From a virus (lineage: Duplodnaviria > Caudoviricetes), in IMG/VR virus record IMGVR_UViG_3300038679_000051, positions 256,400-320,399 of that record: DNA of 64,000 nucleotides; one strand, given 5' to 3'. Below, piece after piece: positions 3,151-47,169 of the stretch (the stretch's first letter is position 1; every line of letters starts with the position of its first letter). Position numbers and translations under genes: made by a program. Below the pieces are notes generated by a model that worked only from the letters and a program-made list of their open reading frames with translations, searched no databases and was not told the origin of the DNA.

Positions 3151-3162
3151 TAATTTCATAAG

Positions 3163-3169: not shown

Positions 3170-3189
3170 TATCAAAGGAGATCGATCAC

Positions 3190-4182: not shown

Positions 4183-4345
4183 GTGGGAAAGTCTAATGGA
4201 GCAGACGTTTCTGCTCATATATTATGGACATATGAATTTATCTGATATAAGGAAATTGACGGCTGAAGAACGCATATGGTATATCAAAAGAATAGACAAG
4301 GAGAAACAAGCCGAAGCTAATGCATATAAAGGAAACAAAAAATGA
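4172..4345 (+). CDS. small gp51-like baseplate hub assembly protein (57 aa; not in the ORF track)
   Basis: MEHEWESLMEQTFLLIYYGHMNLSDIRKLTAEERIWYIKRI..; typical partner downstream of gp26-like genes; ATGA overlap with the next gene. Confidence 0.7.
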   Translation: MEHEWESLMEQTFLLIYYGHMNLSDIRKLTAEERIWYIKRIDKEKQAEANAYKGNKK

Positions 4346-5445
4346 GGATAGGCGTTTATGCTATATGTAAGAACGAAGCGTCATTGATTAAAAGGTGTGT
4401 AGACTCAATAAATGAGGCAGATGACATTACGTTTCTAGATACTGGATCAACCGACGACACAAAAGAGAAATTAAAAGAATGTGGTGTGAACGTTTATGAT
4501 GAATTGGCGACGTTTGGAGAACAACCACCTAATCGGATTCCGAGCATTAAATGGCGATATGACGTCGCTCGAAACAGAGCACTACAAATGGTCCCCAAAG
4601 ACATTGACGTGTGTCTAAGCTTAGATGTCGACGAGATATGTGCCCCTGGTTGGCGTAAGGCAATAGAGGAATGTTGGAAACCAGGCACCACCAGGCTTAG
4701 ATATAAATATGTGTGGAGCCATTCGCAGGATGGCTCCCCAGATGTAATGTTTATGTCAGAGAAAATCCATTCCAGATATGATTATGTTTGGTGCCATCCG
4801 GTACATGAGGTGCTACATTATGTTGGACCCGCAGAAGAGAAATTTGCACAATGTGCATGTCGGATCGATCATTGGCCGGTTAAGAAAGATTATAGATCTA
4901 ACTATCTGCCATTAATGGAATTGGGTGTCATGGAACGTCCAGATGACGTCAGATTGGCACATTATTTAGGTAGAGAATATTATTTTCATAAGAAATATGA
5001 TGAGGCAATAATTGAATTAAAGCGGCATTTATCATTACCTAATGCATGGTGGGAGGCAGAACGAGCATCATCGATGAGATACATTGCTCTGTGTCACAAA
5101 GCTAGAAACGAACGGCACGAGGAATGTCGATGGTTGATGAGAGCATGCGCAGAAGCACCAAATGAAAGAGATTCATGGGCTGCATTGTCAAATCATTATA
5201 CTATACACAAAAATTGGTCTGGGGGTTATTTCGCCGCTCTTCAGGCATTAAGCATCAAAGAACGTCCAATGCATTACATAACCAGTGCTCTCGTGTGGGG
5301 GATGTTTGTACATGACTTGGCTGGGACTAATGCTTATTATTTGGATCTAAAAGCGGAATCCAAAAAACATTATGAAGATGCATTAAATTTCGATCCAAAC
5401 AACGAACGACTGAAGAATAATCTGAGAATAATCGGCAAAATATAA
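4342..5445 (+). CDS. glycosyltransferase family 2 with TPR repeats
   Basis: YAICKNE..LDTGSTD..ARNRAL..SLDVDE (DxD)..HPVHE, followed by TPR-like helices. Confidence 0.85.
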   Translation: MRIGVYAICKNEASLIKRCVDSINEADDITFLDTGSTDDTKEKLKECGVNVYDELATFGEQPPNRIPSIKWRYDVARNRALQMVPKDIDVCLSLDVDEICAPGWRKAIEECWKPGTTRLRYKYVWSHSQDGSPDVMFMSEKIHSRYDYVWCHPVHEVLHYVGPAEEKFAQCACRIDHWPVKKDYRSNYLPLMELGVMERPDDVRLAHYLGREYYFHKKYDEAIIELKRHLSLPNAWWEAERASSMRYIALCHKARNERHEECRWLMRACAEAPNERDSWAALSNHYTIHKNWSGGYFAALQALSIKERPMHYITSALVWGMFVHDLAGTNAYYLDLKAESKKHYEDALNFDPNNERLKNNLRIIGKI

Positions 5446-5483
5446 AATATAGCGGAGATTTTCTTTGCTAATGAGGACATGTC

Positions 5484-7814
5484 ATGGCCATTAAATTCTA
5501 TTGTGTAGATGATTCATTACCAAAGAGAAATAGAAGGGGCAATGTCGTATTATTGTCTGACGAGGCAGTGGCTGCGATCATATGTGAATTGTGTGGTGGC
5601 ACTGGTGGCGGTGGCGGGTCGCAGGGACCACAGGGAACGCAGGGCATTAATGGCGTACAAGGTGAAACTGGCTCCCAAGGTCCACAGGGTTCCGGTGCTG
5701 GTTCACAAGGTCCACAGGGCATTCAAGGCCCACAAGGTTTTGGTACACAGGGCGTAAGCGGACCACAAGGTGATCAGGGCATCCAAGGCCCACAAGGTTC
5801 TGGCACACAGGGCGTAAGCGGATCACAAGGCGATGATGGTGCTCAGGGCATTCAGGGTCCACAAGGCTCAGGCGAGGGTGGCACAGGACCACAGGGTCCA
5901 CAAGGCGTTCAAGGCCCACAAGCAGTGGCAAGCGCTGGTGATTCTTGTGGCGTTTATCATTCTAAATCAGTGAACATACCAAACAATGCAGTTACGTATG
6001 TTGACTGGGATTCAGAAGACCATGATGCCAATGACATGCATGATTTGGTCAATCCATCTAGGATAACAATTAAGCATGATGGGTTGTATCATATAATCAA
6101 TAGGATCAAGTTTGATGCAGATGCTAATGGTTTTAGATATGCTGAGATTATATTAAATCGTACGACCGTATTAGCTCGTACAGAAGATATAAATCCATCG
6201 GACATAGAAGGCACTTATTTAGAAGTGGATTCTGGCGTCATATCATTGTCGCTAGATGATTATGTTGAAGTCAGGGTTTATCAAAGTTCTGGCGGTGCAT
6301 TGGGTGTTATGAGTGGCAATGTCGTTGATGGTTATTTCTCGGTGACGGAAATGTTGGGTGTTGGACCACAAGGATCGCAGGGTAGTGGTACTCAAGGCCC
6401 GCAGGGCGTTCAGGGTCCGCAGGGCGTTCAGGGTCCGCAGGGCGTTCAGGGTCCACAAAATACGATAGATCCAGGCGATTCTTGTGGCGTTTATCGTTCA
6501 GCATTAATAAGCACATTGCATAATACGATCACATATGTTGATTGGGATTCAGAAGATCATGATACCAATGACATGCATGATTTGGTCAATCCATCTAGGA
6601 TCACAATTAAACGTGATGGATTATATCACATAACTAATAGAATTAAATTCGCACCAAACACGAATGGTTTTAGATATGCTGAGATTATATTAAATCGTAC
6701 GACCGTATTAGCTCGCACGGAAGACATAAATCCATCGGACATAGAAGATTCTTATTTAGAAGTTGATTCTGGCGTCATATCATTGTCGCTAGATGATTAT
6801 GTTGAAGTCAGGATTTATCAAAGTTCTGGCGGTGCATTGGATGCCGCAGGGAGTAATGTCGTTGATGGTTATTTCTCGGTGACGGAAATGTTGGGTGTCG
6901 GACCACAAGGCCCACAGTGTTCAGGTGGTGGTGTGACTGGTCCACAAGGACCACAGGGTCCAGCCGGTGTCCAATCCACATACACAAATGCCAACCCATC
7001 CGTCATTGAGGTTGGTGGGATTGATGTCGGTACGACATTTTCTAACACCACTTTCGAAGATTTTATGGACATGTTACTTTACCCAGAATTATTCCCTACT
7101 CTAACTGCACCATCTTCTACTTTTACTTCAACAATTACTGGTTATAGAGAAATTGGTGAGGTGATTGCGACCATAACGCTTGCTTCAACATTTAACCGTG
7201 GTAGCATCAATCCCCAATATGAAAGCACTAGTCCCTATCGGAGTGGTGAGGCTAATTCTCATCAGTATCAATATAATAGTGCTGATATCAAAACCAATTT
7301 AGATACGTCTTTGAACATTATTAATCATTTGGTTGTGTCGGGTGCTCAAACATGGCGTGGACGTGTGTCGTATGATGCGGGCGTCCAGCCAAAGGGCAGT
7401 AAGGGGACGAATTATAATTCACCATTAAGTGCAGGTTCGACTTCTTATATAAATCGCATTATCACGGGTGTCTATCCCTATTTTGCGACAACTAGTTTAA
7501 TCACTGTGCTAACGAAACAGACATTGGCTGCCATGAATAGTTCATATGTACAGACTGATATGGTTGCTGAATCTGGTTCAGATAAACAGACGGTTGAATT
7601 TCCGGACGCTTGGAGTGCAATAACTGGCATTCAATTTTATAATACTGTTAGTAGTACCTGGGAATGGATCAATGGTAGTAAAGCTAATAGTCTGATTACT
7701 TTTACAGTAACTGCAACCACTGAGACGATACAGGGCAATGTCATCGACTATCAAAAATTTACTCATAATGGTAGTTTGATTGGTGCTCGACAATTGAGAT
7801 GGTACACTACTTAA
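5484..7814 (+). CDS. collagen-like fibre protein with two C1q/TNF-like beta domains
   Basis: GPQ/GSQ/GTQ triplets; duplicated ~140 aa domain (about 5940-6362 and 6477-6899). Confidence 0.8.
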
Positions 7815-7824
7815 GGGACTATAA

Positions 7825-10422
7825 ATGGGTCGAGAAAAGGGACTTGCAAGTTTTTCTTCTAATTTCGAGGGCCAAATGGCCGCTCCGATTGATGCGCGTA
7901 TGTTAGTAGAGACTAAGGCTGATCTTATTGTGGCTGCTACTTGGCTCGCGAATGATGGTGGTACTTATGCTTATGCTGGTATGATTGTAAGTGTGCATGG
8001 CGATACAACACCCGAAAACAATGGAGTGTATAGATTAAAAGCTCTTCCAGTTACTACTGAATCTAATTGGGAACTTCTGGGTGGGGGCAGTAGCGGTCCA
8101 CAGGGTCCACAAGGCATACAGGGGCCGCAAGGCTCAGGATATGGCAGTAGCGGTCCACAGGGTCCACAAGGCATACAGGGGCCGCAAGGCTCAGGATATG
8201 GCAGTAGCGGTCCACAGGGTCCACAAGGTGCTACTGGTGACCAAGGCGTTGCTGGTAGTCAGGGTAGTGTAGGTCCACAGGGTGGTGATGGCAGTCAGGG
8301 TTCAATTGGTGATCAAGGTGTTGCTGGTGCTCAAGGTCCACAGGGCGAAATAGGTTTTGCGGTAGGGAATTTGGCTTATTTTAGATTCGACAATGAAGTT
8401 ACCGATACTGGTATGGCTAGTGAAGGTGGGGCGTTTCGTTTTAATAATGCAAACACAACCCTTGTAACCAAAATATGGATCAATAATACAGATGCCTTCA
8501 CGACTGACGTTTCTGCGTGGTTGGCAACATGGGCTGAATCCACAAGCACAATCAAAGGTTATGTGAACATTAGAGGGAGTGCTTCCAATTTCTATATTTA
8601 TTCTGTGACTGGTGTTACCACCAAGGTGGGGTATTATGAGATTGACGTAATCCATATTGCCGATCAGGGCGGTGGACCACCAGTTGATGGTGTAGAATAT
8701 CCCATATCTTTTAGCAGAACCGGGGACATAGGCATCCAAGGTGCTACTGGTCCTCAAGGTCCTGTAGGTGTTCAAGGTACTGCTGGTGCCCAAGGCGTTG
8801 TTGGTGCCCAGGGTGCTACTGGTGCACAAGGTCCTGTAGGCAGCCAAGGTGCTGCTGGTGCCCAAGGCGTTGCTGGTGCCCAGGGTGCTACTGGTGCACA
8901 AGGTAGCACTGGCATAGATGGTACTACTGGTCCCCAAGGTCCTGTAGGCAGCCAAGGTAGTACTGGTAGTCAGGGTGTTGCGGGTGCACAGGGCGTTGCT
9001 GGTGCTCAGGGCGTTGCTGGTGTTCAAGGTACTGCTGGTGCACAGGGTAGCACTGGCATAGATGGTACTACTGGTCCCCAAGGTCCTGTAGGCAGCCAAG
9101 GTGCTGCTGGTGCCCAAGGCGTTGCTGGTGCTCAAGGTTCTACTGGTGCCCAAGGTGTTTCCGGTGCTCAGGGTATAAATGGTGTCACTGGCCCACAAGG
9201 TCCACAGGGCGATCAAGGCCCGCAAAACGTTATTGGTGCTACTGGCCCACAAGGACCACAAGGCACTGGCACGCAGGGTCCACAAGGTGATGATGGTGCC
9301 CAAGGATCACAAGGCATAAATGGTGTTACTGGTCCACAAGGTCCACAAGGTGAGAAGGGTGATCCCGCTGGAACACCTGATTCATGTAAAACAATATTAG
9401 AATCCGATTATCCATTAGCGAATGATGATGCAATTGCAATACCGTTTACTGACGAGGATCATGATACCGATTCGATGCATAGCAATATTGTCAATCCAAG
9501 TAGGATTACCATCAAAACGTCTGGTTATTACCATGTTCGTGGTGTACTTAAATTTGCGACGAATGCAATTGGCATACGATATGCTTATATCAGTAAAGAT
9601 GGAATTAAATTGGCAGATGAAGTCAGAGATCTGAGTCCGTCTGGTTCTTATGTTTCTTATGTAGAGGTCGACCTAGGCGTAATTTCTCTTTCGACCAATG
9701 AATATATCCAGATACATGGTTATCAAAACAGTGGCGATCCCTTAGGTGTTTTGATGGATGGTAGTTTTCTGTCTGTAACGAGTGCATCTGGTGCTAATGG
9801 TGATCAGGGACCAACTGGTCCGATAGGACCACAAGGTGTCATTGGTAGTCAAGGCGATGATGGTACACAGGGACCACAAGGCACTGGTACGCAGGGTCCA
9901 CAGGGCGATCAAGGCCCGCAAAACGTTATTGGTGCTACTGGCCCACAAGGACCACAAGGCACTGGTACGCAGGGTCCACAGGGTGATCAAGGCCCACAAA
10001 ATGTTATCGGTCCGCAAGGTTCACAGGGTCCACAGGGTGATCAGGGCATTGGTGCTACTGGCCCACAGGGACCGCAGGGTCCGATTTGTGCATCAGTACA
10101 AGCACAATCGACCACACCATTAAATCTTACGGCCGCCGATAGTGGCAAAATAATTACAAATGAAGGCATGACTGAATTATTAGTAGTAAATCTACCTACA
10201 GCGGAGGCAGATTTAATGTTCACATTCATAGTACAAGATTCAGACGGAATAAAGATAGTGGCCGGCGTAGACGATAGTACAAGGCTTGGTACAACCGTCA
10301 GTAAATTAGCCGGATATATTCAGAACGCTGTGATTGGATCAATAGTCCGATTGGTGTGTATAAATAATACTGAATGGTTCGCCGAGTATTGGGTAGGTAC
10401 TTGGATAGTGGAGATTTCATAA
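7825..10422 (+). CDS. collagen-like tail fibre protein
   Basis: Long GAQ/GAT/GPQ runs; one C1q-like domain (about 9379-9800). Confidence 0.8.
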
Positions 10423-11159
10423 TGGCTACAGTTGGCTCTCCCGGCATCGGTGTAATTCTTCCGGGGATGGTTATATCATTCGCTGGTGCATCTGTACCAG
10501 AGGGGTGGTTGGATTGTGATGCTACCGCCGTCAGTCGAACCACATATGGTAATCTATTCGCAGCCGTTGGTACTGCTTATGGTGGCGGTGACGGTGGCAC
10601 AACTTTTAATCTTCCTGATTTTCGTGGTCGTTCTATTTTAGGCGAGGGTACTGGTTCCGGTCTCACTGCGAGGGCAAGGGGCGATAAGGCTGGCGTCCAA
10701 TCAGTTTCCATAAGCGCAAATAATTTGCCGCAGCATACGCACGCGGGTGGCGGAAATGTGGGAGCCGAATCCAGCCATGCGCATGGGGCCGGAACCTATG
10801 CAATATCAACGAACAGCAATGCGCACACCCATTCGGGATCGACTGACTGGCAATCTCACGACCACACCCATTACTACTATAATCAATGGTCTGGAAGTGG
10901 TGCGAGTGGTAATAGTTGGGGTGGCTCTTATATAGGCCAAACGAACACGACATCCGGCGTGACGTCAAATCATTATCATCCATTCACAACGGGCAACAAC
11001 TCTTCTGGTGCGAACCACGATCACACGCTGAGCGGTTCGACTGCTGCTGGATCATCTCATGCGCATTCAGACCCGACAACGGGCAACAATACCACCACGG
11101 CCTCGAATGTGGATACGATAAGTCCGTTTGGCGTAGCCAAATACATCATCAAAACGTAA
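10422..11159 (+). CDS. tail collar domain fibre with His-x-His repeats
   Basis: Start at 10422 (TAATG coupling). PGMVISFAG..P.GWL.CD..VSRTTY.NLFAA.GT.YG.GDG.TTFNLPDFRGR collar motif. Confidence 0.85.
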   Translation: MATVGSPGIGVILPGMVISFAGASVPEGWLDCDATAVSRTTYGNLFAAVGTAYGGGDGGTTFNLPDFRGRSILGEGTGSGLTARARGDKAGVQSVSISANNLPQHTHAGGGNVGAESSHAHGAGTYAISTNSNAHTHSGSTDWQSHDHTHYYYNQWSGSGASGNSWGGSYIGQTNTTSGVTSNHYHPFTTGNNSSGANHDHTLSGSTAAGSSHAHSDPTTGNNTTTASNVDTISPFGVAKYIIKT

Positions 11160-11175
11160 TGATCAGGAGCATGAA

Positions 11176-12093
11176 ATGGCTCACGTAATTGATATTTTCG
11201 GTACAGGCGCACCAGATGCGGCGTCAGCGGCTGGTAAGAACATGCTTAAAGCCGCTGACGTAGCAGCACAACAATCAATTATTATTCCTTCTGGTATTGT
11301 GTTACCATTTGCGGGAGCAAGCGTACCAGAAGGGTTTTTAGATTGTAATGCCGCCGCCGTCAGTCGGACTACCTATGCAAATCTATTTACGGCGGTAGGC
11401 ACTGCCTATGGTGGTGGTGACGGTGGCACAACTTTTAATCTTCCTGATTTTCGTGGTCGCTCTATTTTAGGCGAGGGTACTGGTTCCGGGCTAGCTGCGA
11501 GAGCAAGGGGCGATAAGAGTGGCGCAGAGGCGATCACTTTAGCTGCAACTGCATTACCACAACACACACATGCGGGTGGTGGTAACGTTGGTGCTGAGGC
11601 TTCCCATAGTCATGCCGTTGGATCGTACGCTAATGGCGCTGAGGCGAGTCATACTCATGCCACCGGATCATACGCTGCTGCGACTAATAGTAACACTCAC
11701 ACTCACACTATGAGTTTTAATTCAGGTGATATTGCCGGTTCTAATCATAGACACAACATCAAGCTTGAAATGATAGGAGGAAGCGGATCGACTAGGAATG
11801 TTGTTAGTACAGGCGGCACTGAAACTGGTGATGTGACCTCAGTCGAGAATGCCAATCATTATCATGCTGTCAGTGGTACTTCGGCGAACAACTCTGCTGG
11901 TGCAAATCATGATCATTCTATGAGCGGTTCGTCCGCTGCTGGTTCCAGTCACAATCACACTATAAGCGGTTCGTCCGCTGCCGGGTCATCACACACACAT
12001 TCAGACCCGACAACGGGCAATAATGCAGCCCCATCAACAACCGTACCGACCTTGAGTCCGTTTGGCGTAGCCAAATACATCATTAAAACATAG
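11176..12093 (+). CDS. second tail collar domain fibre with His-x-His repeats
   Basis: Same collar motif; close paralog of the preceding gene. Confidence 0.85.
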   Translation: MAHVIDIFGTGAPDAASAAGKNMLKAADVAAQQSIIIPSGIVLPFAGASVPEGFLDCNAAAVSRTTYANLFTAVGTAYGGGDGGTTFNLPDFRGRSILGEGTGSGLAARARGDKSGAEAITLAATALPQHTHAGGGNVGAEASHSHAVGSYANGAEASHTHATGSYAAATNSNTHTHTMSFNSGDIAGSNHRHNIKLEMIGGSGSTRNVVSTGGTETGDVTSVENANHYHAVSGTSANNSAGANHDHSMSGSSAAGSSHNHTISGSSAAGSSHTHSDPTTGNNAAPSTTVPTLSPFGVAKYIIKT

Positions 12094-12122
12094 GGTTCAG
12101 CGAACCATAAGGAGAAACAAAG

Positions 12123-12650: not shown

Positions 12651-12655
12651 AAATT

Positions 12656-12841
12656 CTAGAAATCTTTGGTCTTTTCTTTTGCTTTTTTGGCGCTTGTTTT
12701 TACCGTTTTACATATTGGGCATGTCCATTCATCATAATCGTTTGGGTTGCGGGCATGTGTTGTCGTTTTCATGCATTTAGAACAATAATGATTCATTTTG
12801 GTCAACATCGGCAATGCCTCATATAACATTTGCAGTTTCAT
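12656..12841 (-). CDS. small zinc-ribbon protein
   Basis: CSKC..WTCPIC. Confidence 0.55.
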   Translation of the reverse strand: MKLQMLYEALPMLTKMNHYCSKCMKTTTHARNPNDYDEWTCPICKTVKTSAKKAKEKTKDF

Positions 12842-12903
12842 GTATGGTTTCTCCTTGAAGACATTTTGGCTTTACCGTTGTGCATCCAGTAATATTTTTG
12901 TCG

Positions 12904-12910
12904 TAAATAT
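12904..12910 (+). promoter_or_regulatory. putative late promoter (TAAATAT) directly before an RBS-less ATG
   Basis: Motif ends 4 nt upstream of ATG 12915. Confidence 0.45.
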
Positions 12911-12914
12911 TAAT

Positions 12915-13889
12915 ATGGAGAGAGAAACGTTACAACCGATTGATAAGTTTAACCATTGTGCGTCAATTATTGAATTCTATGACGGCGTATTGATTGCTTA
13001 TTATGCCGGTTCGAGGGAATGTAATGACGACCAACGAATAATCCTGACGTACAAGAACGTACATCAACCAAAAAAGAGATGGAAATGGTCTGATGCAATC
13101 AGTTTTGAAATTGGGACAGGGAATCCCATTTTGTTTAAACATGATAATGCAATCTACGTTGCTTATGCCAAATTTGAACGAGACTTTCCACAACGCGTGA
13201 AAAAATGGGCTTATTGTTCATTGTGGTGTCGTAAAATATCATTGAGCACGCAATTGGTCGTGGGTGATCCAATGCCCATGTTCAAACACCCGCAGATTGG
13301 TTTTCTGTTTAGGATTGCGCCGTTCTACCACGATGGTAGAACGTTTTTACCGATATATAGGGAAGAGAATTGTTATAGTGCCGTATATGAATGGTTAGGA
13401 GACAAATTAAAGCTAATCGGGCGGATTGGTTATGGTTGTAATTCGACCATGCAACCGTCATTATGGTATGATGGCACGGCATTTCACGCATTGTGCAGGA
13501 ATTATCGTCCCAGCGTATATGGACCATACGCATGGCATTCAACGTCACCAAATCTGATAGATTGGTCACATCCTGAATTGGAAAAGACGTTAGACAACAA
13601 TAACAATTCAATCGCCGTCATAAATGATGATAAGAAGGATCCATTGGTCATTTGGAACGTAGGGATGGATAGACGAGATCTCCGTTTAGGTAGGCTCAAT
13701 GGGCACATGCGTGGCATAAGTTATGTGACGCTCAATTCTGACGATGGGTTGAGATATGGGTCTTATCCAAATTATTGCTTTGATAAATTCAATGGTCTTC
13801 ATATGGTATGGACCGATATGATTGACGACAATTTATCGATCAGTTATATGTCATTGAATGAAAAGGAATATCGGCAATTAAGAAAATGA
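12915..13889 (+). CDS. BNR-repeat / exo-alpha-sialidase-like beta-propeller
   Basis: HCASIIEF..L.AYYAGSRE..GNPILF..MQPSL..RN..S.NL..WS.P..NNNS pattern; likely start 12915. Confidence 0.65.
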   Translation: MERETLQPIDKFNHCASIIEFYDGVLIAYYAGSRECNDDQRIILTYKNVHQPKKRWKWSDAISFEIGTGNPILFKHDNAIYVAYAKFERDFPQRVKKWAYCSLWCRKISLSTQLVVGDPMPMFKHPQIGFLFRIAPFYHDGRTFLPIYREENCYSAVYEWLGDKLKLIGRIGYGCNSTMQPSLWYDGTAFHALCRNYRPSVYGPYAWHSTSPNLIDWSHPELEKTLDNNNNSIAVINDDKKDPLVIWNVGMDRRDLRLGRLNGHMRGISYVTLNSDDGLRYGSYPNYCFDKFNGLHMVWTDMIDDNLSISYMSLNEKEYRQLRK

Positions 13890-14143
13890 GGAGGGGGAAA
13901 ATGCGCTTTAAACTTAAGGGCGTTGATAAGGTCTTTATTTCATGGACGACAACCACTTGGAATGGGGTCCAATATTACGAAGGTGTTGTAACTTGGCATA
14001 AGAAAATGCCTAAATCAGGCAAGAAAGAAGCGTTTGCTCTTTGTATGGGCAAACAAGTAATTACCGAAAAAGAACATTACATTGTTGAAAAGGACATAAC
14101 GACACTTGCTTCTAAACCCTACTGGGAAAACCAAGGTAATTAG
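13886..14143 (+). CDS. hypothetical protein
   Basis: Coupled to the upstream stop; plausible RBS. Confidence 0.5.
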   Translation: MRRGKMRFKLKGVDKVFISWTTTTWNGVQYYEGVVTWHKKMPKSGKKEAFALCMGKQVITEKEHYIVEKDITTLASKPYWENQGN

Positions 14144-14145
14144 TT

Positions 14146-15291
14146 TTATTTTTCCGGTTCGATATCTGCCAATCTTGCATATTCTGCATCGTCATATTTC
14201 TCGCCTCTTGACATTAGATTATGTTTCAATTGTTCTGGCGTCCTAGATAACCACTCAAATTCAAATGAGGTATATCCAAATGGTCTTAACGTGCTTTCCA
14301 ATAATTCGCGCCATCGTTTGTATCTAAAATGATATCCTTCCACTATTATGTCCTTTGATAGATTTAACGATAGGCAAGCATTTTGTAATATGAAACGCTC
14401 CAATGATTGCGTCAACAAATCATTGATTCTAGTTTGTTCATAATCTTTCAAACATTGATCGTCTTGGTTCAACGTACGCATCGTTTCACGTAATACGCCA
14501 TCTAAAGACAAGGCATTGGTCGATCTAGTATGGGTCGTATAGGTTTTGCCAGATCCAGGGGGGCCTGAAATTATGGTTACTTGTTTCTCACTATCGCGGC
14601 GTTTTTTGCATACGAATAAATATCGTACGCCGTTCTTACCACCTTCATGTAATCCTTTGGGCAGTTGTGGTGGCGGCATGCGACAATGGATCATGGCATG
14701 GTCGAAATGTCGTCGTAACGTTTGTAAGCAGTAAGCCAGTGACGGTATGTTATTGTTGAATCCTTCTCTATAAGTCATCAATTCGGCGGTCAATGGGTTG
14801 CAAATTATTTCGAGATAATAATTTGCACTATCAATTTTGGCTAGGCGTTCAATGGCTTTATCAAATTTAACGTCTGCATCATTCACGCGACCTTGTATTA
14901 AATGATGTAATACTGCCAAACAAAACGTGATGTCGAATGCGTCCTTCTCATAGGGCTGTGTCGTCCAGAAATCAGATTGCATTATTAAGTGGTTTCTATG
15001 TTTCACATAATTTTGTAGTAAAAATCTGGTGGCCAATACTGCATTGATGTCACGGTCTATGCCGACAATCGAACTTGCCCCAAGCTGGGCGGCTCTACAG
15101 AGAAAATATCCGCTCGAACAACCAATATCTAGAACCCTCTTATTTCTGACGGACAATTCCGACCACGGCAATTCACGGTCGCGCAAAAGCGTGTCGGAAT
15201 GACCCCTAATGATTGTTGAACCTATTTTGAACGTATGGTAATGGAACCCCGGCGTTTTCTTAATGTGTTCAATGATTTGTTGTTCGTCCAT
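14146..15291 (-). CDS. class I SAM methyltransferase (CmoB/DUF1698-like) fused to P-loop kinase domain
   Basis: VLDIGCSSGYF..GID..FDITFCLAVLHH, then IISGPPGSGKT Walker A. Confidence 0.75.
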   Translation of the reverse strand: MDEQQIIEHIKKTPGFHYHTFKIGSTIIRGHSDTLLRDRELPWSELSVRNKRVLDIGCSSGYFLCRAAQLGASSIVGIDRDINAVLATRFLLQNYVKHRNHLIMQSDFWTTQPYEKDAFDITFCLAVLHHLIQGRVNDADVKFDKAIERLAKIDSANYYLEIICNPLTAELMTYREGFNNNIPSLAYCLQTLRRHFDHAMIHCRMPPPQLPKGLHEGGKNGVRYLFVCKKRRDSEKQVTIISGPPGSGKTYTTHTRSTNALSLDGVLRETMRTLNQDDQCLKDYEQTRINDLLTQSLERFILQNACLSLNLSKDIIVEGYHFRYKRWRELLESTLRPFGYTSFEFEWLSRTPEQLKHNLMSRGEKYDDAEYARLADIEPEK

Positions 15292-15313
15292 TTTCTATCT
15301 CCTTTTCATTATA

Positions 15314-15321
15314 TATTTATA
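15314..15321 (-). promoter_or_regulatory. T4-type late promoter consensus TATAAATA
   Basis: Exact TATAAATA on the minus strand, upstream of the AAGGAG RBS of 15291. Confidence 0.6.
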
Positions 15322-16756
15322 GAGCATTTTTCACCTTGGCTATTTCACTTCCAAATTTCCAATCATGTCTAATGACGTTTTCTTTTGTTCGGATTATTTT
15401 TAATGATTCAGTTTCGTTCATCAACACTCTATCAATCGTTCCACCATAACTTTCGTTTTTTCTTGTACGTTTAATTCTTGGATCGCAATTTCGTATCAAC
15501 CAGTCTATTGATCGACAATTTATTATATAAGCATAAGTTCCCGCCTGTCCATTGATTTTCTGCCAATAATCACTCACATTACATTTAACGATAGTTGGTA
15601 ATTTCGGATGATGATATAAGTATGCTATGTCGAAATCATCGGGTAGATTTTTAACATATTTATAAAAGATGTCGATGGAGTCACAACTGACATCATCTTC
15701 CAAGATCAAAACGTTTCCACCGTATCTTTTTGCTCGTTTAAAACATTCCAATTGTGCTAGTGCACAAGCAAAACTGTTGCGTTTTATGCCATCAGAGGCG
15801 TTTACGTTATGTGATTCGCCGCCAGATCCTTTATAAAACCATGACGGTACTTCGTCATTCCATATGATACCGGGCACTCTCTCAGATATAGAATTAAGCC
15901 CTAATTGTAGGAGTAGACGTTCGACGTTTAATTTCCTGTCGTGAGAACCATCTATATTTATATAAAAGACACGATTAATTTTGTATGGATAGATTTCAAT
16001 CAATGAATGTGTCTGACTATAAAAATCAGACAGAGAATGTATTGGCTGAGTAATGACGACTTTATGTTCTACTTGACGACGACTTAGACTTGCATAATGT
16101 TTGTGTGGCAATTGTCTACTCAATGCGAGTTTATAACCAGATCCAATCAATTGTTTGCTCATATCGATATCGCAATGCAAATGTTTCCTACATTTTGTCC
16201 AATTGATTGATTTTAATGCGGCAGTTCGAAATAATGTTGCCGAATATGTTGCCCAATATACTAACCAAACAATCTTATCATTAATCACTAGTTTTCTTTC
16301 TGATTCTACGTTTTTGATCGTCGGTGACGTCGCCTTTCCGTATTCGTCGACGGCAAACAATTCGAGACTTGCAACGTTATTTGGCAATAATTTCATCAAT
16401 TTTTCGGCTTCCAGCCTATTGAATAATACAGTGTCTTGCTCACATATCCAAACGAATTCGTCGTTGATCACATTAATCGTTTTTTCCAACAATAAATTCA
16501 TTCTCGGTGGTTTACCCTCCGATAATTCGACAATTTCACCCATTGTCCTTAGCCATTCCTTATCTTCTATTGGTGCTGCATCTACAGCATATATGAAGTT
16601 TATGTCTCTATTACAATCATATGTCTCTTTGATGCATTTCTTAATCAATCGCCTATTTTCTGGCCAATCTTTCCTAATATAAATCGTCTTGATCATTGTA
16701 ATGGTTCTTCGTTTTGGTCTAAACCCGCTCAAGATTGGCGCAAATTTATGCATCAT
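15317..16756 (-). CDS. two-domain glycosyltransferase: N-terminal GT-A-like domain plus C-terminal GT25-like domain
   Basis: C-terminal VFYINID..DR..ERVPG..CALAQ..VLILEDD..AGTYAYII is GT25-like; N-terminal domain has WICEQD. Confidence 0.7.
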   Translation of the reverse strand: MMHKFAPILSGFRPKRRTITMIKTIYIRKDWPENRRLIKKCIKETYDCNRDINFIYAVDAAPIEDKEWLRTMGEIVELSEGKPPRMNLLLEKTINVINDEFVWICEQDTVLFNRLEAEKLMKLLPNNVASLELFAVDEYGKATSPTIKNVESERKLVINDKIVWLVYWATYSATLFRTAALKSINWTKCRKHLHCDIDMSKQLIGSGYKLALSRQLPHKHYASLSRRQVEHKVVITQPIHSLSDFYSQTHSLIEIYPYKINRVFYINIDGSHDRKLNVERLLLQLGLNSISERVPGIIWNDEVPSWFYKGSGGESHNVNASDGIKRNSFACALAQLECFKRAKRYGGNVLILEDDVSCDSIDIFYKYVKNLPDDFDIAYLYHHPKLPTIVKCNVSDYWQKINGQAGTYAYIINCRSIDWLIRNCDPRIKRTRKNESYGGTIDRVLMNETESLKIIRTKENVIRHDWKFGSEIAKVKNAL

Positions 16757-17580
16757 TTACCTTTCGTGAAGGGAATGATTTGTGGGCCGATTTTATAAAA
16801 AATATCTTCTATGCCGAATCTGCCTTTTAATATATCATAATATTTATATATGTCGCGCCTATATTTAGAATAATCATTTTCAGTCTCATGTTTGTGGTCG
16901 ATGATTACGTTATTCGTAAATGCAACTTTAACGTTTCCTCTTTCTTTTAAATTTAGAAATATATCAATATGCGATACGGTTTTCAGTTCTGGCATCCAAC
17001 CTACATTGCGCATTAATTGCGTTTTAGCTATGAAAAAATTCATAATTATGTCATAATATTTAATACCGTTTATTTCAGCCACAGGGACATCTTTGTTGAG
17101 GATCAACATACCATTGTCGTATTCTGCCTGTATGTTATAGGAATGACCTATGACGAAACCACCTACTACATCCATCTTTTCGGTCGTAATTAACTTATAG
17201 AAATTTTCCAATACGGTTTCATCTATAAATATGAAATCATCATCACATAATATGAAATATGGTGTCTCTACTTTGCTCAATAAGAAATTTCTACCCGCAC
17301 CCGCACCGACATAAAATGGGAGTTTCCAATATTTGATCGCATGACCAAAACCGTGATCATTGAATTCTTCGACTGTCATTCGATGTAATTCAGAATCATC
17401 TGCTATGAGTATGTGCATGTCCAAATAACGTTTTCTGACGGATTTTATAAGTCGTGCCAAACAAGTTGGTCGTTTGAATGTTTTGATTATTAGCGTTACT
17501 TCTTCGTTGAATTTAGTCATGCATTCAAGTTTCGGCATGATCAATTTATCAACTTCCCTTTTAGGGAATTTATGAGCCAT
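16753..17580 (-). CDS. glycosyltransferase family 2
   Basis: VTLIIKTFKRP..ILIADDS..GAGRN..TPYFILCDDDF; RBS spacing favours ATG 17580. Confidence 0.85.
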   Translation of the reverse strand: MAHKFPKREVDKLIMPKLECMTKFNEEVTLIIKTFKRPTCLARLIKSVRKRYLDMHILIADDSELHRMTVEEFNDHGFGHAIKYWKLPFYVGAGAGRNFLLSKVETPYFILCDDDFIFIDETVLENFYKLITTEKMDVVGGFVIGHSYNIQAEYDNGMLILNKDVPVAEINGIKYYDIIMNFFIAKTQLMRNVGWMPELKTVSHIDIFLNLKERGNVKVAFTNNVIIDHKHETENDYSKYRRDIYKYYDILKGRFGIEDIFYKIGPQIIPFTKGK

Positions 17581-17633
17581 TTTCATTCTCCTAATTATCT
17601 ACATTTGATTCTAATAAGCGGGCGTGGCGTTGA

Positions 17634-18023
17634 TTAATGAGGTAAAGAAGTGGTTGTGATGTCTTTAGGCAACAAGACGGAACGCACGGTTTCCCAATTT
17701 ATTAAAGGACGTTTGTGCATTGCGTATTGAATCAATGGGGCACCAAAAGCAGCGTCATCGATATACAGATGTGCATAGGCTTTTGGGCTGGTGGTCCAAT
17801 TTTGTTCTGGATTGCGTTGGATTCCAAACAATGGGATGTTCCGTTGTCGATACCATTTTATGGCATCTTGGAGTTGTTCACCATCCCGCATGGTCCAGAG
17901 GATTATTTTGTGTCCTTGTGCGACTAAATCACGCAACGTGTCAACCGCACCAGGCGCATCTGAACCGACATCTGGGAAACGGTGATCTACGACGGTCCCA
18001 TCGAAATCGACCGCGATGATCAT
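17634..18023 (-). CDS. HAD-superfamily phosphatase (BT0820-like)
   Basis: IIAVDFDGTVV..LWTMR..K.YAHLYIDD. Confidence 0.85.
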   Translation of the reverse strand: MIIAVDFDGTVVDHRFPDVGSDAPGAVDTLRDLVAQGHKIILWTMRDGEQLQDAIKWYRQRNIPLFGIQRNPEQNWTTSPKAYAHLYIDDAAFGAPLIQYAMHKRPLINWETVRSVLLPKDITTTSLPH

Positions 18024-18232
18024 GATCTAGTCCATCTTTCGAACTTTGGGCATGAATGGTTGTAGTGGACGTTATGGTTATAATTGTTTCCAGATGCATC
18101 CTTGTTTGAACAACGACCTTGACTGCTTTCTGCGATCACCTCACCTGAACACATGTGTGATCGATCTTCTCGTTTGCCGCTCCAGTAAATGCAACACGCA
18201 CAATGCTTGCCTGTAACGCTGCTGACGCTCAT
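18020..18232 (-). CDS. small Cys-rich hypothetical protein
   Basis: GGGAGG RBS; CACC, C..C and CP motifs. Confidence 0.55.
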   Translation of the reverse strand: MSVSSVTGKHCACCIYWSGKREDRSHMCSGEVIAESSQGRCSNKDASGNNYNHNVHYNHSCPKFERWTRS

Positions 18233-18442
18233 GTTCTTTCCCTCCCTTTTTATCGTTTCATGAGACGATGATTGCGATTCACCTTAAATGCTACCTATCC
18301 ACCAGCATTGATGCCCATCTTATGCAAAAAATCTGTGTCAGATTGCTTAAACATGCGTTCCTCCCAACGTTCATTAACGTTATGAGGGCAATCCGTCAAT
18401 TCTTTTTTTGAATCTTCATATGTTTGTCCTGATAAATAATTA

Positions 18443-18640
18443 AGAGGGGATTAAGAATGAAATCAGATACGTGGAATTAATCAAACGCAATAACCTTGAT
18501 CTAAAATAGATTGAAGACAACGTATTGCCGTTGTTGGCTGACAACATGAGTAAAAGATGGGCGGTAGAGTTCCGTAAGATGGCACTTAAAGACGAAATCA
18601 ATGAGGACGACGAAAACATGATCCTGAGGAGCATGACGTA
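18443..18640 (+). pseudogene. possible gene remnant with internal TAG
   Basis: Frame reads EGIKNEIRYVELIKRNNLDLK*IEDNVLPLLADNMSKRWAVEFRKMALKDE..; protein-like, but no start codon and one stop. Confidence 0.25.
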
Positions 18641-18642
18641 AC

Positions 18643-19356
18643 ATGCTTTACGCCGCCGGTCGGAAAATACCTAAACGGTTGTTGGAACGACCGGAAACGA
18701 AGTCACTCATATTGTCCAACAGTATGATACCGAGATTTAAAAAATCAACACGAATGCGGGATGCAATATTTGTATGGATACCAAAGTGTGCTGGGACTAG
18801 CATTTATAGGTCATTAGGATTCACTAAACTTAAGCGACATAGACAATTCACCAAATTCAATAATTCAGGTCGCGTTACATTTGATCATGTCTCATTGTTG
18901 ACATTACTCGAAAACAATTATGTGTCGAGACAATATTATAATAGGGCATTTAAATTTTGTTTTGTCAGGAATCCATGGGATAGAATAATTTCATTGTACC
19001 ATTATCTGTGGCGTTACCACAAAACTGATTTTAAAAATTTTTGCTATCTCATAGATAAAGGCATAGATGACATTGGATTATATAATTCTAAAGGTTTTAG
19101 CCAGGCTAATCCGCAATACAAATGGATTTATGATGAAAACATGAAGTGTATAGTTGATTTTATTGGTCGTCATGAGATGTTGCAACACGATTTCGACACC
19201 ATATGCAATAAGTTGAACATGCCATCTATTGAGTTATTAAGAGCAAATAGATCAAGACATAGGAAACCTTACCCAGATTATTATGACGATGAGACGAAAG
19301 AGATTGTGCGTAAGATCTATAAAAAGGACATTGAATTATTTGGATACGAATTCTAA
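18643..19356 (+). CDS. sulfotransferase (Sulfotransfer_2 family)
   Basis: FVWIPKCAGTSI (5'-PAPS loop), FVRNPWDRIISLY (3'-PAPS motif), DFIGRHE.L..DF. Confidence 0.85.
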   Translation: MLYAAGRKIPKRLLERPETKSLILSNSMIPRFKKSTRMRDAIFVWIPKCAGTSIYRSLGFTKLKRHRQFTKFNNSGRVTFDHVSLLTLLENNYVSRQYYNRAFKFCFVRNPWDRIISLYHYLWRYHKTDFKNFCYLIDKGIDDIGLYNSKGFSQANPQYKWIYDENMKCIVDFIGRHEMLQHDFDTICNKLNMPSIELLRANRSRHRKPYPDYYDDETKEIVRKIYKKDIELFGYEF

Positions 19357-19442
19357 TGAACAATAAGATACCTAAACGATTGTTGGAACGACCGGAAACG
19401 AAGTCACTCATATTATCCAACAGTATGATACCGAGATTCAAA
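18664..19442 (+). repeat. 78-bp direct repeat encoding an identical 26-aa N-terminal leader (18664-18741 and 19365-19442)
   Basis: Both copies translate to KIPKRLLERPETKSLILSNSMIPRFK; four nucleotide differences, all synonymous. Confidence 0.95.
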
Positions 19443-20015
19443 ATCAAGATCAAAGAACCAAAACGTTCTAGGAGCGTTCGCGATCGTCATGTTGGTGGTT
19501 TTCATACGCACGGTGATCCGTCAACGTGGTATCCGGACATGTGGCAATGGTTTGTAAAGACACACAACATCAAAAACGTATTGGACGTTGGTTGTGGTGC
19601 CGGTTATGCGGCTGGATATTTTGCACATCTTGGTTGTAATGTAACGGCAATTGACGGTTCGAAAAAAGCGTTGAATTATAAAGTGTTCAACATTAAGATA
19701 CACGATCTGGTTTATGGTCCATTCTTACAGAAAGACGTTGATTTAGTTTGGTGTTGTGAAGTGGTAGAACACATTAGAGAAGAGTATCTTGGGCATTTAT
19801 TGGATACGATTTGTCAGGGCAAATGGTTGTTGATGACGCATGCCAGACCAGGCCAACCAGGGACGCATCACGTCAATTGTCAGCACGATGGTTACTGGAT
19901 TGGAAAAATAGAAGAGAGGGGATGCAAATACGACGACGCCATTACGTCGTCGTGTAGAGACATGGCTGGTGGTTTCTTCAAAGAAAGCGGATTGGTGTTT
20001 AAATGCTTACAATAG
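19356..20015 (+). CDS. class I SAM-dependent methyltransferase
   Basis: VLDVGCGAGY..AIDGS..DLVWCCEVVEHI..PGQPG.HHVN. Confidence 0.85.
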   Translation: MNNKIPKRLLERPETKSLILSNSMIPRFKIKIKEPKRSRSVRDRHVGGFHTHGDPSTWYPDMWQWFVKTHNIKNVLDVGCGAGYAAGYFAHLGCNVTAIDGSKKALNYKVFNIKIHDLVYGPFLQKDVDLVWCCEVVEHIREEYLGHLLDTICQGKWLLMTHARPGQPGTHHVNCQHDGYWIGKIEERGCKYDDAITSSCRDMAGGFFKESGLVFKCLQ

Positions 20016-21367
20016 CTGGTAGGAATCCACACAAGAAACTGATAATCCCTAAAAGAGAGATCAAACCGATCATCAAACAAGCATCGCAAGAAATCGAATT
20101 AAAACAAATACCAAGCGTGGTTGAGAAAAAGACAATTGCGATGATTAAATGTGTCTTTATTAGAGAAGATTGGCCGGAAAATAGGCGATTGATTAAGAAA
20201 TGTATCAAGGAGACATATGAACAGAATAGAGACGTTAGAATAATATTTGCCGTAGATGCAGCACCAGTAGAGGACAAAGAATGGTTGAAAACGATGGGTG
20301 AGGTAATAGAATTATCAGAGGGTAAACCACCGAGGATGAATTTATTGTTGGAAAAAGCAATCAATATGGTTGATGATGAATATGTCTGGACATGTGAGCA
20401 AGATGTTATTATTAGTAAAAGCGAGAGATTGAAAGCAGAAGAATTAGTCAGAAAATTACGTGATGATGTTTATGCATTAGAGATAAGATCTGTTGATGAG
20501 AATGGGTGGCCGACTTATCCATTTAAAAGAAGAAGAACCATTGAGAATGAAAAAATTGGTGGTTATGTTGTATGGTTAGATAGCAAGCATACTACGTTTT
20601 CTAGTGTGATATGGAAGACTAAATTTATGAAATTGATCGACTGGAAAGGATGTAGAACGCATTTATATTGTGATGTTGATGTAAGTTTGCAATTGCGACA
20701 AAGAGAATATAAGAATGCATTATGTGGCGACATCAAGTATGTTCATTATCCAAGTTTAAGTCGTAGACGATTTGATCACAATGAATTGATGCAAATCGGC
20801 ATAAAATATGGAACTGATAAGGCAATTGGTCATAATTATATAAAATATTATTATGAACTGTTTAAACATAAACGAAATGACGTCAAAAGGGTGGTTGAAA
20901 TTGGTGTTCATAAAGGTGCGTCATTGAGAATGTGGCAAGAATATTTTCCAAATGCACAAATTTATGGCTTTGATATCAAAGATTATGGTGATTATTTTAA
21001 TAAAACCGAAAAGAGAATCAAGACATATGTCGTTGATCAAACTGATTCAAAACGACTAAATGAGATTATGACAGAGATAGGAGAAGTTGATATAATTATA
21101 GATGATGGTTCGCATATTGACACTCACCAATTGATCAGTCTTAATGCATTATATAAATGGGTTAAACCTTTTGGATGTTATATAATCGAAGATATCAATC
21201 CAAAAGGTTATAATTATGGTGATAGATCAGAAAAGTTTATTGCATCATTTAATGATGATTTGATAGATAAAGATGTTGTATTAACGTTAAAACATAATAA
21301 AATTGAAGTTCATAATAATGAACCTGGTACATGCATGATAGCAATTTTCCATGTGCTCGTGAGGTGA
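20003..21367 (+). CDS. GT-A-like domain fused to sugar O-methyltransferase-like domain
   Basis: N-terminal domain is a close paralog of the 16756 N-terminus; C-terminal KYGTDK..HNY..VVEIGV..GASLRMWQEYFPNA.IYGFDI..DIIIDDGSH. Confidence 0.75.
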   Translation: MLTIAGRNPHKKLIIPKREIKPIIKQASQEIELKQIPSVVEKKTIAMIKCVFIREDWPENRRLIKKCIKETYEQNRDVRIIFAVDAAPVEDKEWLKTMGEVIELSEGKPPRMNLLLEKAINMVDDEYVWTCEQDVIISKSERLKAEELVRKLRDDVYALEIRSVDENGWPTYPFKRRRTIENEKIGGYVVWLDSKHTTFSSVIWKTKFMKLIDWKGCRTHLYCDVDVSLQLRQREYKNALCGDIKYVHYPSLSRRRFDHNELMQIGIKYGTDKAIGHNYIKYYYELFKHKRNDVKRVVEIGVHKGASLRMWQEYFPNAQIYGFDIKDYGDYFNKTEKRIKTYVVDQTDSKRLNEIMTEIGEVDIIIDDGSHIDTHQLISLNALYKWVKPFGCYIIEDINPKGYNYGDRSEKFIASFNDDLIDKDVVLTLKHNKIEVHNNEPGTCMIAIFHVLVR

Positions 21368-21369
21368 AA

Positions 21370-21891
21370 ATGGACACGAATGTTTTGAACTTTGTAAAAA
21401 AGTTGAATCTAAACGAAAACGAAAAGGTACTAGAAGTGGGGAGTTTAAACATCAATGGTACAGTACGTTCTGTCATTAAAAATAAAAACTATATTGGCAT
21501 AGATGCCGTTGCTGGAAATGGCGTTGATGTCGTCATGGATTTATTTGATATTGATATAAAGTTTGAAGTTGGTAGTTTCGACATTGTTGTTTCTTGCGAA
21601 TTACTAGAACATGTTGAGGATTGGTTTGGTGCCATACAAAAAATGTGGAAAATGTTAAGACCACAAGGACAGTTGGTTTTAACTACCCGTCGCCCTGGTT
21701 TTGGTTATCATGCTTATCCGAATGACTTTTGGCGGTTTACTACCTCTGATTTAAAAAAAGCATTTAAAAAGCAATATTGTCTAATTGAGGATCTTGATAA
21801 TTTTGGGATTGGTTGTTTGGTAATCAAGACAACAGAATCAATTGATAATAATAAATTTTCAATTGATTCTTTCATAAAACCATATCCCTAA
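21370..21891 (+). CDS. class I SAM-dependent methyltransferase (type 11-like)
   Basis: VLEVGSLNING..GID..GVDVV..FDIVVSCELLEHV..LRP.G..YH.YP.DFWRF; start 21370 after GAGG. Confidence 0.85.
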   Translation: MDTNVLNFVKKLNLNENEKVLEVGSLNINGTVRSVIKNKNYIGIDAVAGNGVDVVMDLFDIDIKFEVGSFDIVVSCELLEHVEDWFGAIQKMWKMLRPQGQLVLTTRRPGFGYHAYPNDFWRFTTSDLKKAFKKQYCLIEDLDNFGIGCLVIKTTESIDNNKFSIDSFIKPYP

Positions 21892-43531: not shown

Positions 43532-43548
43532 CGTGAATGGAGACGCAC

Positions 43549-44001: not shown

Positions 44002-44011
44002 TTTTCTACTT

Positions 44012-44018
44012 TAAATAT
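44012..44018 (+). promoter_or_regulatory. putative late promoter (TAAATAT)
   Basis: Upstream of the AAGGAG RBS of 44037. Confidence 0.5.
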
Positions 44019-44036
44019 ACGTAAAGGAGATTGCTT

Positions 44037-47139: not shown

Positions 47140-47169
47140 TAGTGAACACAAACAGGAGAGGAAAATTAG

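Follow-up and report, generated by a model that had tools for sequence, protein, structure and literature searches.

At one end of an uncultured, T4-like jumbo phage genome of 320 kb, a gene for a family 2 glycosyltransferase (GT2) with tetratricopeptide repeats (TPR), here called GT2-TPR, stops 38 nt before the first of two consecutive collagen-like fibre genes; judging from its sequence, its modelled structure and the analogy with known systems, the encoded enzyme probably glycosylates those fibres. The stretch analysed (the window) is the terminal 64 kb of the 320,399-bp IMG/VR virus record IMGVR_UViG_3300038679_000051 (positions 256,400 to 320,399), whose end repeat is a 151-bp terminal overlap only; it is the tail-fibre or hypervariable module of the phage, and coordinates are those of the window unless given as genome or contig positions. 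The system is a phage-fibre variant of the SgtA/BclA3 pair, unusual in its Gln-type collagen, in a conserved partner gene for a BNR propeller, and in a very large accessory glycan toolkit.

The initial annotation of this DNA had proposed a complete pathway by which the phage glycosylates, sulfates and methylates its own collagen fibres. We retain from that proposal the glycosylation by the gene directly upstream, for which the fold, the SgtA-like architecture, the non-random adjacency to collagen-like genes and a gene trio kept in the lineage of the phage all speak; extension, sulfation and O-methylation by the neighbouring enzyme island are unsupported. For the region as a whole we lean towards fibre glycosylation by GT2-TPR, with the acceptor of the island treated as a separate matter.

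The GT2-TPR enzyme and the collagen-like fibres

The enzyme and the collagen-like genes of the phage are:

4342..5445, + strand: SgtA-like GT2 plus TPR predicted protein O-glycosyltransferase, 367 aa (Pfam GT2, E 1.9e-7, and TPR)
5484..7814, + strand: collagen-like fibre 1, 776 aa, with short Gly-x-Gln tracts alternating with two BclA_C/C1q-like globular domains, and a C-terminal tail-protein domain
7825..10422, + strand: collagen-like fibre 2, 865 aa, with one BclA_C/C1q-like domain (Pfam Collagen, E 2.2e-45)
43537..52011, + strand: second fibre cluster, consisting of small conserved genes (43537-44001 and 44031-44819) followed by collagen fibres 3 and 4
44806-47139, + strand: collagen fibre 3 (from tract composition)
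47170-52011, + strand: collagen fibre 4, 1613 aa, the most Ser/Thr-rich (Thr 28% of Y, Ser 22% of X)
63471..64000, + strand: collagen fibre 5 (Gly-x-y tracts), continuing across the end repeat of the record into the genome start, with collagen matches at both record ends

The protein encoded at 4342-5445 matches phrog_13126 over its full length (E 6.6e-91). Its AlphaFold2 (AF2) model, built from an alignment of 33 relatives (predicted local distance difference test, pLDDT, 93), consists of an N-terminal Rossmann-like GT-A domain followed by helical TPR repeats at aa 185-365; an acidic DxD-type motif, D95-x-D97-E98, is invariant in the 33 relatives, and the protein is soluble, with no transmembrane segment and a maximum 19-residue hydropathy of 0.87. 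The best whole-length matches of the model in Foldseek are the peptide glycosyltransferases SunS (E 9e-15) and ThuS (E 4e-14), and the family profile finds the glycosyltransferase domain of GmaR (E 3e-10), which we take to be the Listeria flagellin O-linked N-acetylglucosamine (O-GlcNAc) transferase, as well as ThuS (E 8e-8), TPR proteins and the TPR region of OGT. Like the phage enzyme, SunS, ThuS and GmaR combine a GT2 domain with helical repeats, and they glycosylate peptides or proteins in the cytoplasm; unlike it, they act on bacteriocin precursors or flagellin, share 15-17% identity with it and, in the case of SunS and ThuS, form S-linkages to Cys.

A comparable layout is found in Clostridioides difficile, where SgtA (358 aa; GT-A 1-260, TPRs 262-358) has its gene beside bclA3 and attaches beta-O-GlcNAc to Thr, as well as to Ser, in collagen-repeat peptides of BclA3 (PMC7157674). 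The phage enzyme is likewise about 360 aa long and has its GT-A domain at the N-terminus and its TPRs at the C-terminus, its gene stands immediately upstream of a collagen-like gene, and the fibres share with the BclA3 family a Gly-x-y stalk and a BclA_C/C1q-like head. The differences are that the phage proteins are tail fibres and not spore coat, and that their tracts are Gly-x-Gln with sparse Thr instead of GPT. Sequence homology was established to Bacillota enzymes in an SgtA-like genomic context, and SgtA itself was compared by its published description.

From this analogy we infer acceptor, donor and linkage as follows. Late in infection, in the cytoplasm, the TPR domain would dock on the collagen-like chains, and the GT-A domain would move a sugar from a host nucleotide-sugar (by analogy with SgtA, beta-O-GlcNAc from UDP-GlcNAc) onto Ser/Thr hydroxyls of the Gly-x-y tracts. 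Fibres 1 and 2, and probably also the more Ser/Thr-rich fibre 4, would be the likely acceptors and would become glycosylated virion fibres, with the product of 4342-5445 as the predicted initiating enzyme.

Collagen genes number five in this phage, and all of them lie in the window or across the record junction: the two placed by the initial annotation at 5484-10422 are present, but three more lie at 44806-47139, at 47170-52011, and from 63471 to the end. Gln occupies the Y position in 46-94% of the triplets of the tracts, and Lys plus Arg amount to at most 0.01 per triplet, so that the G-x-Q dominance and near absence of Lys and Arg noted earlier are borne out; G-x-T (6-28%) and G-S-x (9-22%) triplets, by contrast, which had been listed among the dominant ones, are only minorities. 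Ser plus Thr come to 0.06-0.55 per triplet overall and to 0.3-0.55 in fibres 1, 2 and 4. Fibre 1 has 34 triplets (Y=Q 79%) and fibre 2 has 104 (Y=Q 53%, Y=T 12.5%, X=S 16%), with a long central Gly-x-y tract at aa 300-467 that contains GAT/GST/GTT triplets.

The globular domains of fibres 1 and 2 (Atlas features 0.91) align at template modelling scores (TM-scores) of 0.8-0.9 with clusters of C1q and of BclA_C plus collagen, and resemble BclA_C/C1q/TNF-like heads; residues 148-292 of fibre 1 alone give BclA_C/C1q-like Atlas matches at 0.8-0.9, and the C-terminus of that fibre shares 28% identity with cr11_1, a crAss-like tail protein. One globular domain, roughly 140 aa long (DSCGVY...SVTEMLG), is present three times, at 5925-6360 and 6470-6900 in fibre 1 and at about 9370-9780 in fibre 2; since such copies stand between tracts, the fibres are beads on a string, made of collagen stalks and C1q-like trimer heads.

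Recurrence of the pairing in phages and bacteria

At E <= 1e-20 the GT2-TPR family has no fewer than 1,197 members, and its adjacency to collagen-like genes is recurrent and non-random. Viral contigs yielded 60 loci with relatives at 30-45% identity, and in 28 of them a collagen-like open reading frame (ORF; an unbroken Gly-x-y run of 36 residues or more) lies within 10 kb on the same strand; for half of these (14) the distance is at most 200 bp. Of 44 viral loci chosen around GT25/GT-A relatives as a control (783 kb in total), one has such an ORF (Fisher p = 1.2e-7). The co-occurrence of collagen with glycosyltransferase and sulfotransferase genes, which the initial annotation had suggested as a check, is thus found for GT2-TPR but not for the genes of the island. 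Species-representative cellular genomes contain at least 577 relatives, of which the best 80 show full-length identities of 41-46% and come nearly all from Bacillota, many of them spore formers; a collagen ORF with GPT/GAT tracts lies within 300 bp in 49 of these 80 loci and within 3 kb in 56, and almost all of those within 300 bp stand immediately upstream in the same orientation. In a tree of 122 relatives, collagen adjacency appears in 71 rows and in many clades, and therefore does not reflect one inherited accident.

In phages the usual cassette is a collagen gene with one lone glycosyltransferase at the end of the tail module; when 128 neighbours of the collagen-linked GT2-TPR genes in phages were classed by Pfam family, the common ones were Gly_rich_2, lysozyme, amidase, holin and virion proteins. 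The Actinomycetia phage DSL-LC01 has a GT2-TPR homologue preceded by two annotated collagen genes. A full-text search of the literature found no description of a pairing of collagen-like fibre and glycosyltransferase in phages. Because the glycosyltransferase gene stands directly before the fibres and the pairing is repeated in many phages and spore formers, the fibres are probably sugar-coated.

The closest homologues of the enzyme (45-52% identical) are found on three metagenome contigs (L212, L214 and L215), in each of which the order is a BNR_2 gene (30-32% identical to the propeller of the window), GT2-TPR, and GPT-collagen, indicating that the trio travels together in this lineage. The window counterpart of the first member is:

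12798..13889, + strand: BNR/sialidase-like beta-propeller (Pfam BNR_2, E 2.5e-10)

The propeller may serve in glycan binding, glycan trimming or receptor hydrolysis. In L212 the GT2-TPR gene lies directly upstream of homologues of 43537-44001 (58% identity) and 44031-44819 (36%), followed by a collagen ORF, an arrangement that matches the gene order of the second fibre cluster of the window. In all three contigs the glycosyltransferase carries a second, fused domain, GT-A-like and some 230 aa long, with a weak GT2 signal. This domain has a free-standing homologue in the phage at genome 30352-31074, of a phage GT-A-like family; being fused in the relatives and free here, it suggests that the fibre glycan contains more than one sugar and that extension enzymes may be encoded away from the fibres. 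A relation of the GT-A family of the island (A4) to this second domain or to its free homologue was sought with hhalign, and none was found. Elsewhere in the genome (191496-194483), a 996-aa protein carries two GT2 domains. On a further contig a 361-aa homologue of this protein (38% identical; L213:9152-10237) is encoded directly downstream of the GT2-TPR gene, a position which hints at another extension enzyme of the same pathway.

The enzyme island and its acceptor

From 4342 the genes run in the order GT2-TPR, collagen fibres 1 and 2, two tail-collar proteins, an unassigned 175-aa protein, and the BNR_2 propeller. They are followed by a leftward operon (18023 down to 14146) for a HAD phosphatase, a GT2, a 479-aa protein and a methyltransferase plus P-loop kinase, and by a rightward operon (18643-21891) for a sulfotransferase, a methyltransferase, a GT-A plus Methyltransf_24 protein and another methyltransferase. 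These enzymes had been described as flanking the fibres, which is true of GT2-TPR, but the others start 3.7 kb downstream, past the tail-collar, unassigned and BNR genes. The domain calls of the initial annotation were all reproduced, including the GT-A plus GT25 assignment, which has no direct Pfam match above threshold but is carried by homologues and the AF2 model.

10374-11159 and 11176-12093, + strand: tail-collar-domain fibre proteins (Pfam Collar, E 2e-21 and 2.6e-20)
14146..15291, - strand: class I S-adenosylmethionine (SAM) methyltransferase plus P-loop kinase domain (Pfam Methyltransf_31/11, E ~1e-8; weak AAA_33, E 5.7e-4)
15317..16756, - strand: tandem GT-A plus probable GT25 glycosyltransferase, 479 aa (homologues, AF2, Foldseek)
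16753..17586, - strand: GT2 glycosyltransferase, 277 aa (Pfam GT2, E 1.3e-14; weak NCBIfam HpsN/PglI/WcaA-type matches)
17634..18023, - strand: small HAD-type phosphatase (NCBIfam BT0820-family, E 3e-28; phrog_1238, E 1.5e-31)
18643..19356, + strand: predicted carbohydrate sulfotransferase of the 3'-phosphoadenosine-5'-phosphosulfate (PAPS) type (Pfam Sulfotransfer_2, E 7.1e-14, 53 bits against a cut-off of 22)
19356-20015, + strand: methyltransferase (Pfam)
20003-21367, + strand: divergent GT-A plus Methyltransf_24 fusion (Pfam)
21331-21891, + strand: methyltransferase (Pfam)

The N-domain of the 479-aa protein is 53% identical to that of the protein encoded at 20003-21367. For its C-domain, the direct Pfam GT25 score is 13.3 bits, under the 24-bit cut-off, with the EDD motif conserved; 28 of 29 phmmer homologues are Pfam GT25, as are the nearest Atlas clusters. 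The AF2 model (pLDDT 87) has two GT-A domains, and its top Foldseek match in the PDB, spanning both, is COLGALT1 (also GLT25D1; E 2e-16), the human collagen hydroxylysine galactosyltransferase, with Mimivirus R655 and R699 and LH3 lower among the matches. The phage protein shares with COLGALT1 the tandem of GT-A and GT25 domains, and the phage likewise encodes collagen-like proteins; the orientation of the domains differs (TM-score 0.33). As the tracts have essentially no Lys, and a PF13640 2OG-oxygenase, as a partner lysyl hydroxylase, was looked for in the genome without success, a hydroxylysine acceptor of the COLGALT1 kind is impossible; and as GT25 also holds enzymes of lipopolysaccharide (LPS) synthesis, the match shows family and architecture, not substrate. 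A scan of IMG/VR with this single protein returned no relatives.

The sulfotransferase has a PKCAGTS loop (PKxxGT/S) at aa 47-53, which we take to bind the 5'-phosphosulfate of PAPS. A 79-nt direct repeat (18664-18742 and 19365-19443; 95% identical, with a spacing of 701 nt that corresponds roughly to the length of one gene) makes up the 5' coding ends of this gene and of the next methyltransferase gene; because it brackets the sulfotransferase gene, it looks like the trace of a recent single-gene cassette insertion with duplication of the gene junction. The corresponding single-protein scan of IMG/VR was likewise without relatives. The methyltransferase next to a bacterial sulfotransferase homologue (in L202) was considered as a counterpart of the window methyltransferases, and showed no specific relation to them.

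The three genes at 19356-21891 are kept together (62%, 55% and 33% identity) in metagenome contig L195/L204, in the company of GT9, MT21 and radical-SAM genes. The Methyltransf_24 (MT24) domain of 20003-21367 is 39% identical to gp17 of Mycobacterium phage Omega, whose gene follows those for the major head protein and a glycosyltransferase. According to the portions of PMC12363180 and PMC12619734 considered here (citing Freeman et al. 2023), phage glycosyltransferases encoded among the structural genes O-glycosylate virion proteins of the mycobacteriophages Che8, Corndog and Myrna, and the Omega row of capsid, glycosyltransferase and methyltransferase genes resembles the arrangements of other mycobacteriophages with virion glycosylation (PMC12363180). 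Unlike the present case, the targets described in those portions are the C-termini of capsid and tail-tube subunits, the glycosyltransferases belong to other families, and no sulfotransferase figures. All proteins of the island are soluble, without a transmembrane segment, and Wzx, Wzy, an initiating phosphoglycosyl transferase and a membrane-spanning protein are all missing from it; a soluble island fits cytoplasmic tailoring of a soluble acceptor, though such enzymes may also act peripherally on lipid-linked intermediates of the host.

That the island elaborates a glycan borne by the virion is possible, although we are inclined to doubt it, and the full claim of a sulfated and O-methylated fibre glycan we consider unlikely. 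In its most elaborate and equally unlikely form, a multi-sugar, O-methylated and sulfated glycan would be carried on Ser/Thr of the Gly-x-Gln fibres, begun by the SgtA-like enzyme, extended by the COLGALT1-like one, and tailored by glycosyltransferase-methyltransferase fusions and a recently captured LPS-type sulfotransferase; the COLGALT1-like tandem enzyme would have exchanged hydroxylysine for a sugar or Ser/Thr as its acceptor. A number of results weigh against fibre glycosylation, most of them against the share of the island in it. Thr at the Y position is unusually sparse (6% in fibre 1, 12.5% in fibre 2, 6% in fibre 3 and 28% in fibre 4), compared with 33-93% in partner collagens elsewhere and about 60% in those of bacteria, and in the family tree the GT2-TPR of the window sits on a long branch (1.24) without settled placement, its nearest neighbours (L012, L036-L043) lacking collagen genes. 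No relatives of island genes were found in the flanks of about 140 GT2-TPR loci, and no glycosyltransferase, methyltransferase or sulfotransferase is among the top 25 Pfam families of the 128 neighbours. The GT25/GT-A relatives in viral contigs do not adjoin collagen, and the single viral locus and six short metagenome loci recovered by a scan with a trimmed A4 alignment were all free of collagen. Neither a sugar nucleotidyltransferase nor a PAPS-synthesis gene or adenosine 5'-phosphosulfate (APS) kinase was found when sought in the genome, so that sugar donors and PAPS must be supplied by the host. The closest homologues of the sulfotransferase (44-47% identical), finally, are bacterial and chromosomal and lie in loci for capsular polysaccharide (CPS) or LPS, beside Wzi, GT4 and Glyphos_transf genes in L198/L199 and beside Wzy_C, Kdo-kinase-like, GT4, methyltransferase and APS-kinase genes in L202; the enzyme is therefore best read as a glycan sulfotransferase of LPS/CPS type.

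These sulfotransferase loci, and the absence of collagen from the loci compared for island genes, also favour an alternative to which we give a lesser, tentative place: that the island and the other glycosyltransferase islands remodel host envelope glycans (LPS core or O-chain, capsule) and that only GT2-TPR acts on the fibres. The purpose might then be, just as tentatively, a block to superinfection, or progeny that are not trapped on debris. GT25 is, by its Pfam name, mainly a family of LPS glycosyltransferases, and homologues of the N-domain of the 479-aa protein are fused to Capsule_synth, GT9 and GT2 domains. Many genes for glycosyltransferases (GT2 and GT25 among them) and epimerases, together with Mom genes, are interspersed among the tail-fibre genes of pelagimyophages (PMC7029224) and of the cyanomyovirus S-SCSM2R (PMC12801897), much as here, and the portions of these reports considered here assign such regions of T4-like marine phages to modification of the host O-chain or of DNA, without taking fibre glycosylation into account; unlike the window, the regions are described there with no mention of a sulfotransferase or of an SgtA-like glycosyltransferase/collagen pair. 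An action on the envelope is harder to reconcile with the lack of Wzx, Wzy, an initiating phosphoglycosyl transferase and any membrane-spanning protein, with the location of the island inside the fibre module, and with the MT24 relatives of cultured phages in rows of capsid, glycosyltransferase and methyltransferase genes; moreover, the fusion of a second glycosyltransferase domain to the fibre enzyme of relatives makes multi-step virion glycans plausible.

It is improbable that GT2-TPR instead acts on another virion protein or on non-collagen domains, its position reflecting mere membership of the tail module. The long branch and collagen-free tree neighbours would suit such a target, as would the scarcity of Thr in fibres 1-3; distant homologues in PaBG-like and Erwinia jumbo phages do not adjoin collagen, and in two collagen-free loci (L045 and L046) the glycosyltransferase lies among Ser/Thr-rich fibre-like proteins, so that the family may serve virion proteins more generally. 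However, the closest homologues are followed by GPT-collagen genes, only 38 nt separate the gene of the window from fibre 1, and fibres 1, 2 and 4 retain Ser/Thr as potential acceptors, SgtA accepting Ser as well as Thr (PMC7157674). Hypermodification of the phage DNA by the glycosyltransferases, methyltransferases and sulfotransferase, an alternative already named in the initial annotation, is very improbable. Phage glycosyltransferases do often glycosylate hydroxymethyl-pyrimidine DNA, and three Mom-family genes in the window indicate an investment of this genome in DNA modification. Yet a search of the genome for a hydroxymethylase of the thymidylate-synthase family turned up none, and several Mom genes already stand as candidate DNA modifiers, which together make DNA glycosylation unlikely; the lead enzyme, moreover, has a protein-binding TPR domain and peptide glycosyltransferases as structural neighbours. 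We know of no DNA substrates for Sulfotransfer_2 or GT25 enzymes.

If fibres are routinely O-glycosylated by SgtA-like enzymes, the receptor-binding structures of many uncultured phages carry a glycan layer, one that is currently annotated as modification of the host surface or of DNA. Such a layer would have effects on host range, on resistance to proteases and defences, and on immune recognition of therapeutic phages, and would change the reading of 'auxiliary' glycosyltransferase islands in large aquatic phages. The sulfotransferase and methyltransferases are notable in this respect only if they act on the virion; were the multi-sugar, O-methylated and sulfated glycan real, no virus before this one would have been found to encode a pathway to a sulfated glycoprotein, and collagen glycosylation would have arisen here independently.

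Genome setting and further observations

Upstream of GT2-TPR lie homologues of T4-type tail genes, and far downstream a second pairing of fibre and glycosyltransferase, with an enzyme of another family than GT2-TPR:

1579-3150, upstream of the baseplate gene: tail-tube gp19 homologues (Pfam)
3190..4182, + strand: T4-type baseplate protein (Pfam T4_baseplate, E 5.3e-11)
58062-59831, + strand: fibre with S74 intramolecular-chaperone domain (Pfam Peptidase_S74, E 4.6e-11)
59771-60730, + strand: GT1-family glycosyltransferase, directly after the S74 fibre (Pfam Glycos_transf_1, E 3.2e-13)

The gp19 and baseplate homologues at 1579-4182 mark a contractile-tail module, so that GT2-TPR and the fibres lie inside the tail module. 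A megablast search of cultured phages with the region gave no match, and in a search for close relatives of the phage by its baseplate protein, IMG/VR yielded a single 4-kb fragment and the metagenome contigs nothing. The T4 late-promoter motif TATAAATA occurs at 10 sites against 3.6 expected, mostly within genes, and so carries no usable information on timing; scans for sigma-70 promoters and terminators gave no excess over a shuffled background.

The phage is unusually rich in glycan enzymes, with ten GT2 matches across the genome. A second sugar island lies outside the window at genome 23632-37485 (L211:3632-17485), where a GDP-mannose-4,6-dehydratase-like enzyme, a sugar C-methyltransferase (Methyltransf_13/23/14) and a further methyltransferase are encoded, together with a 240-aa phage GT-A-like protein, homologous to the domain that relatives have fused to GT2-TPR, and a PKD/Ig-domain protein, after which come four GT2 genes. 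The Mom-family (GNAT) genes of the window are located at 23-1036, 31442-32830 and 34657-36297, one of them fused to helix-turn-helix domains; they probably reflect adenine hypermodification of the DNA, apart from the glycan enzymes.

Next to the enzyme island, a gene on the - strand (21859-22662) encodes a 267-aa protein with weak TPR matches and an N-terminus, MMKMVAMLLVIACFGCFAG, that resembles a signal or lipoprotein peptide; it is the sole exported-looking protein beside the island. Two paralogous genes further on, both on the - strand (23366-23989 and 25604-26224), have homologues (43-46% identity) that adjoin GT-A-domain genes in L206 and L208, and they may belong to the same glycan island. 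One of the three contigs with the closest GT2-TPR homologues, L214, also shares the PurZ-like adenylosuccinate-synthase gene of the phage (genome 124141-125430): the copy at L214:266-2647 aligns with it in two blocks (50% and 40% identical), carries Hint and LAGLIDADG matches, and appears to be interrupted by an intein.

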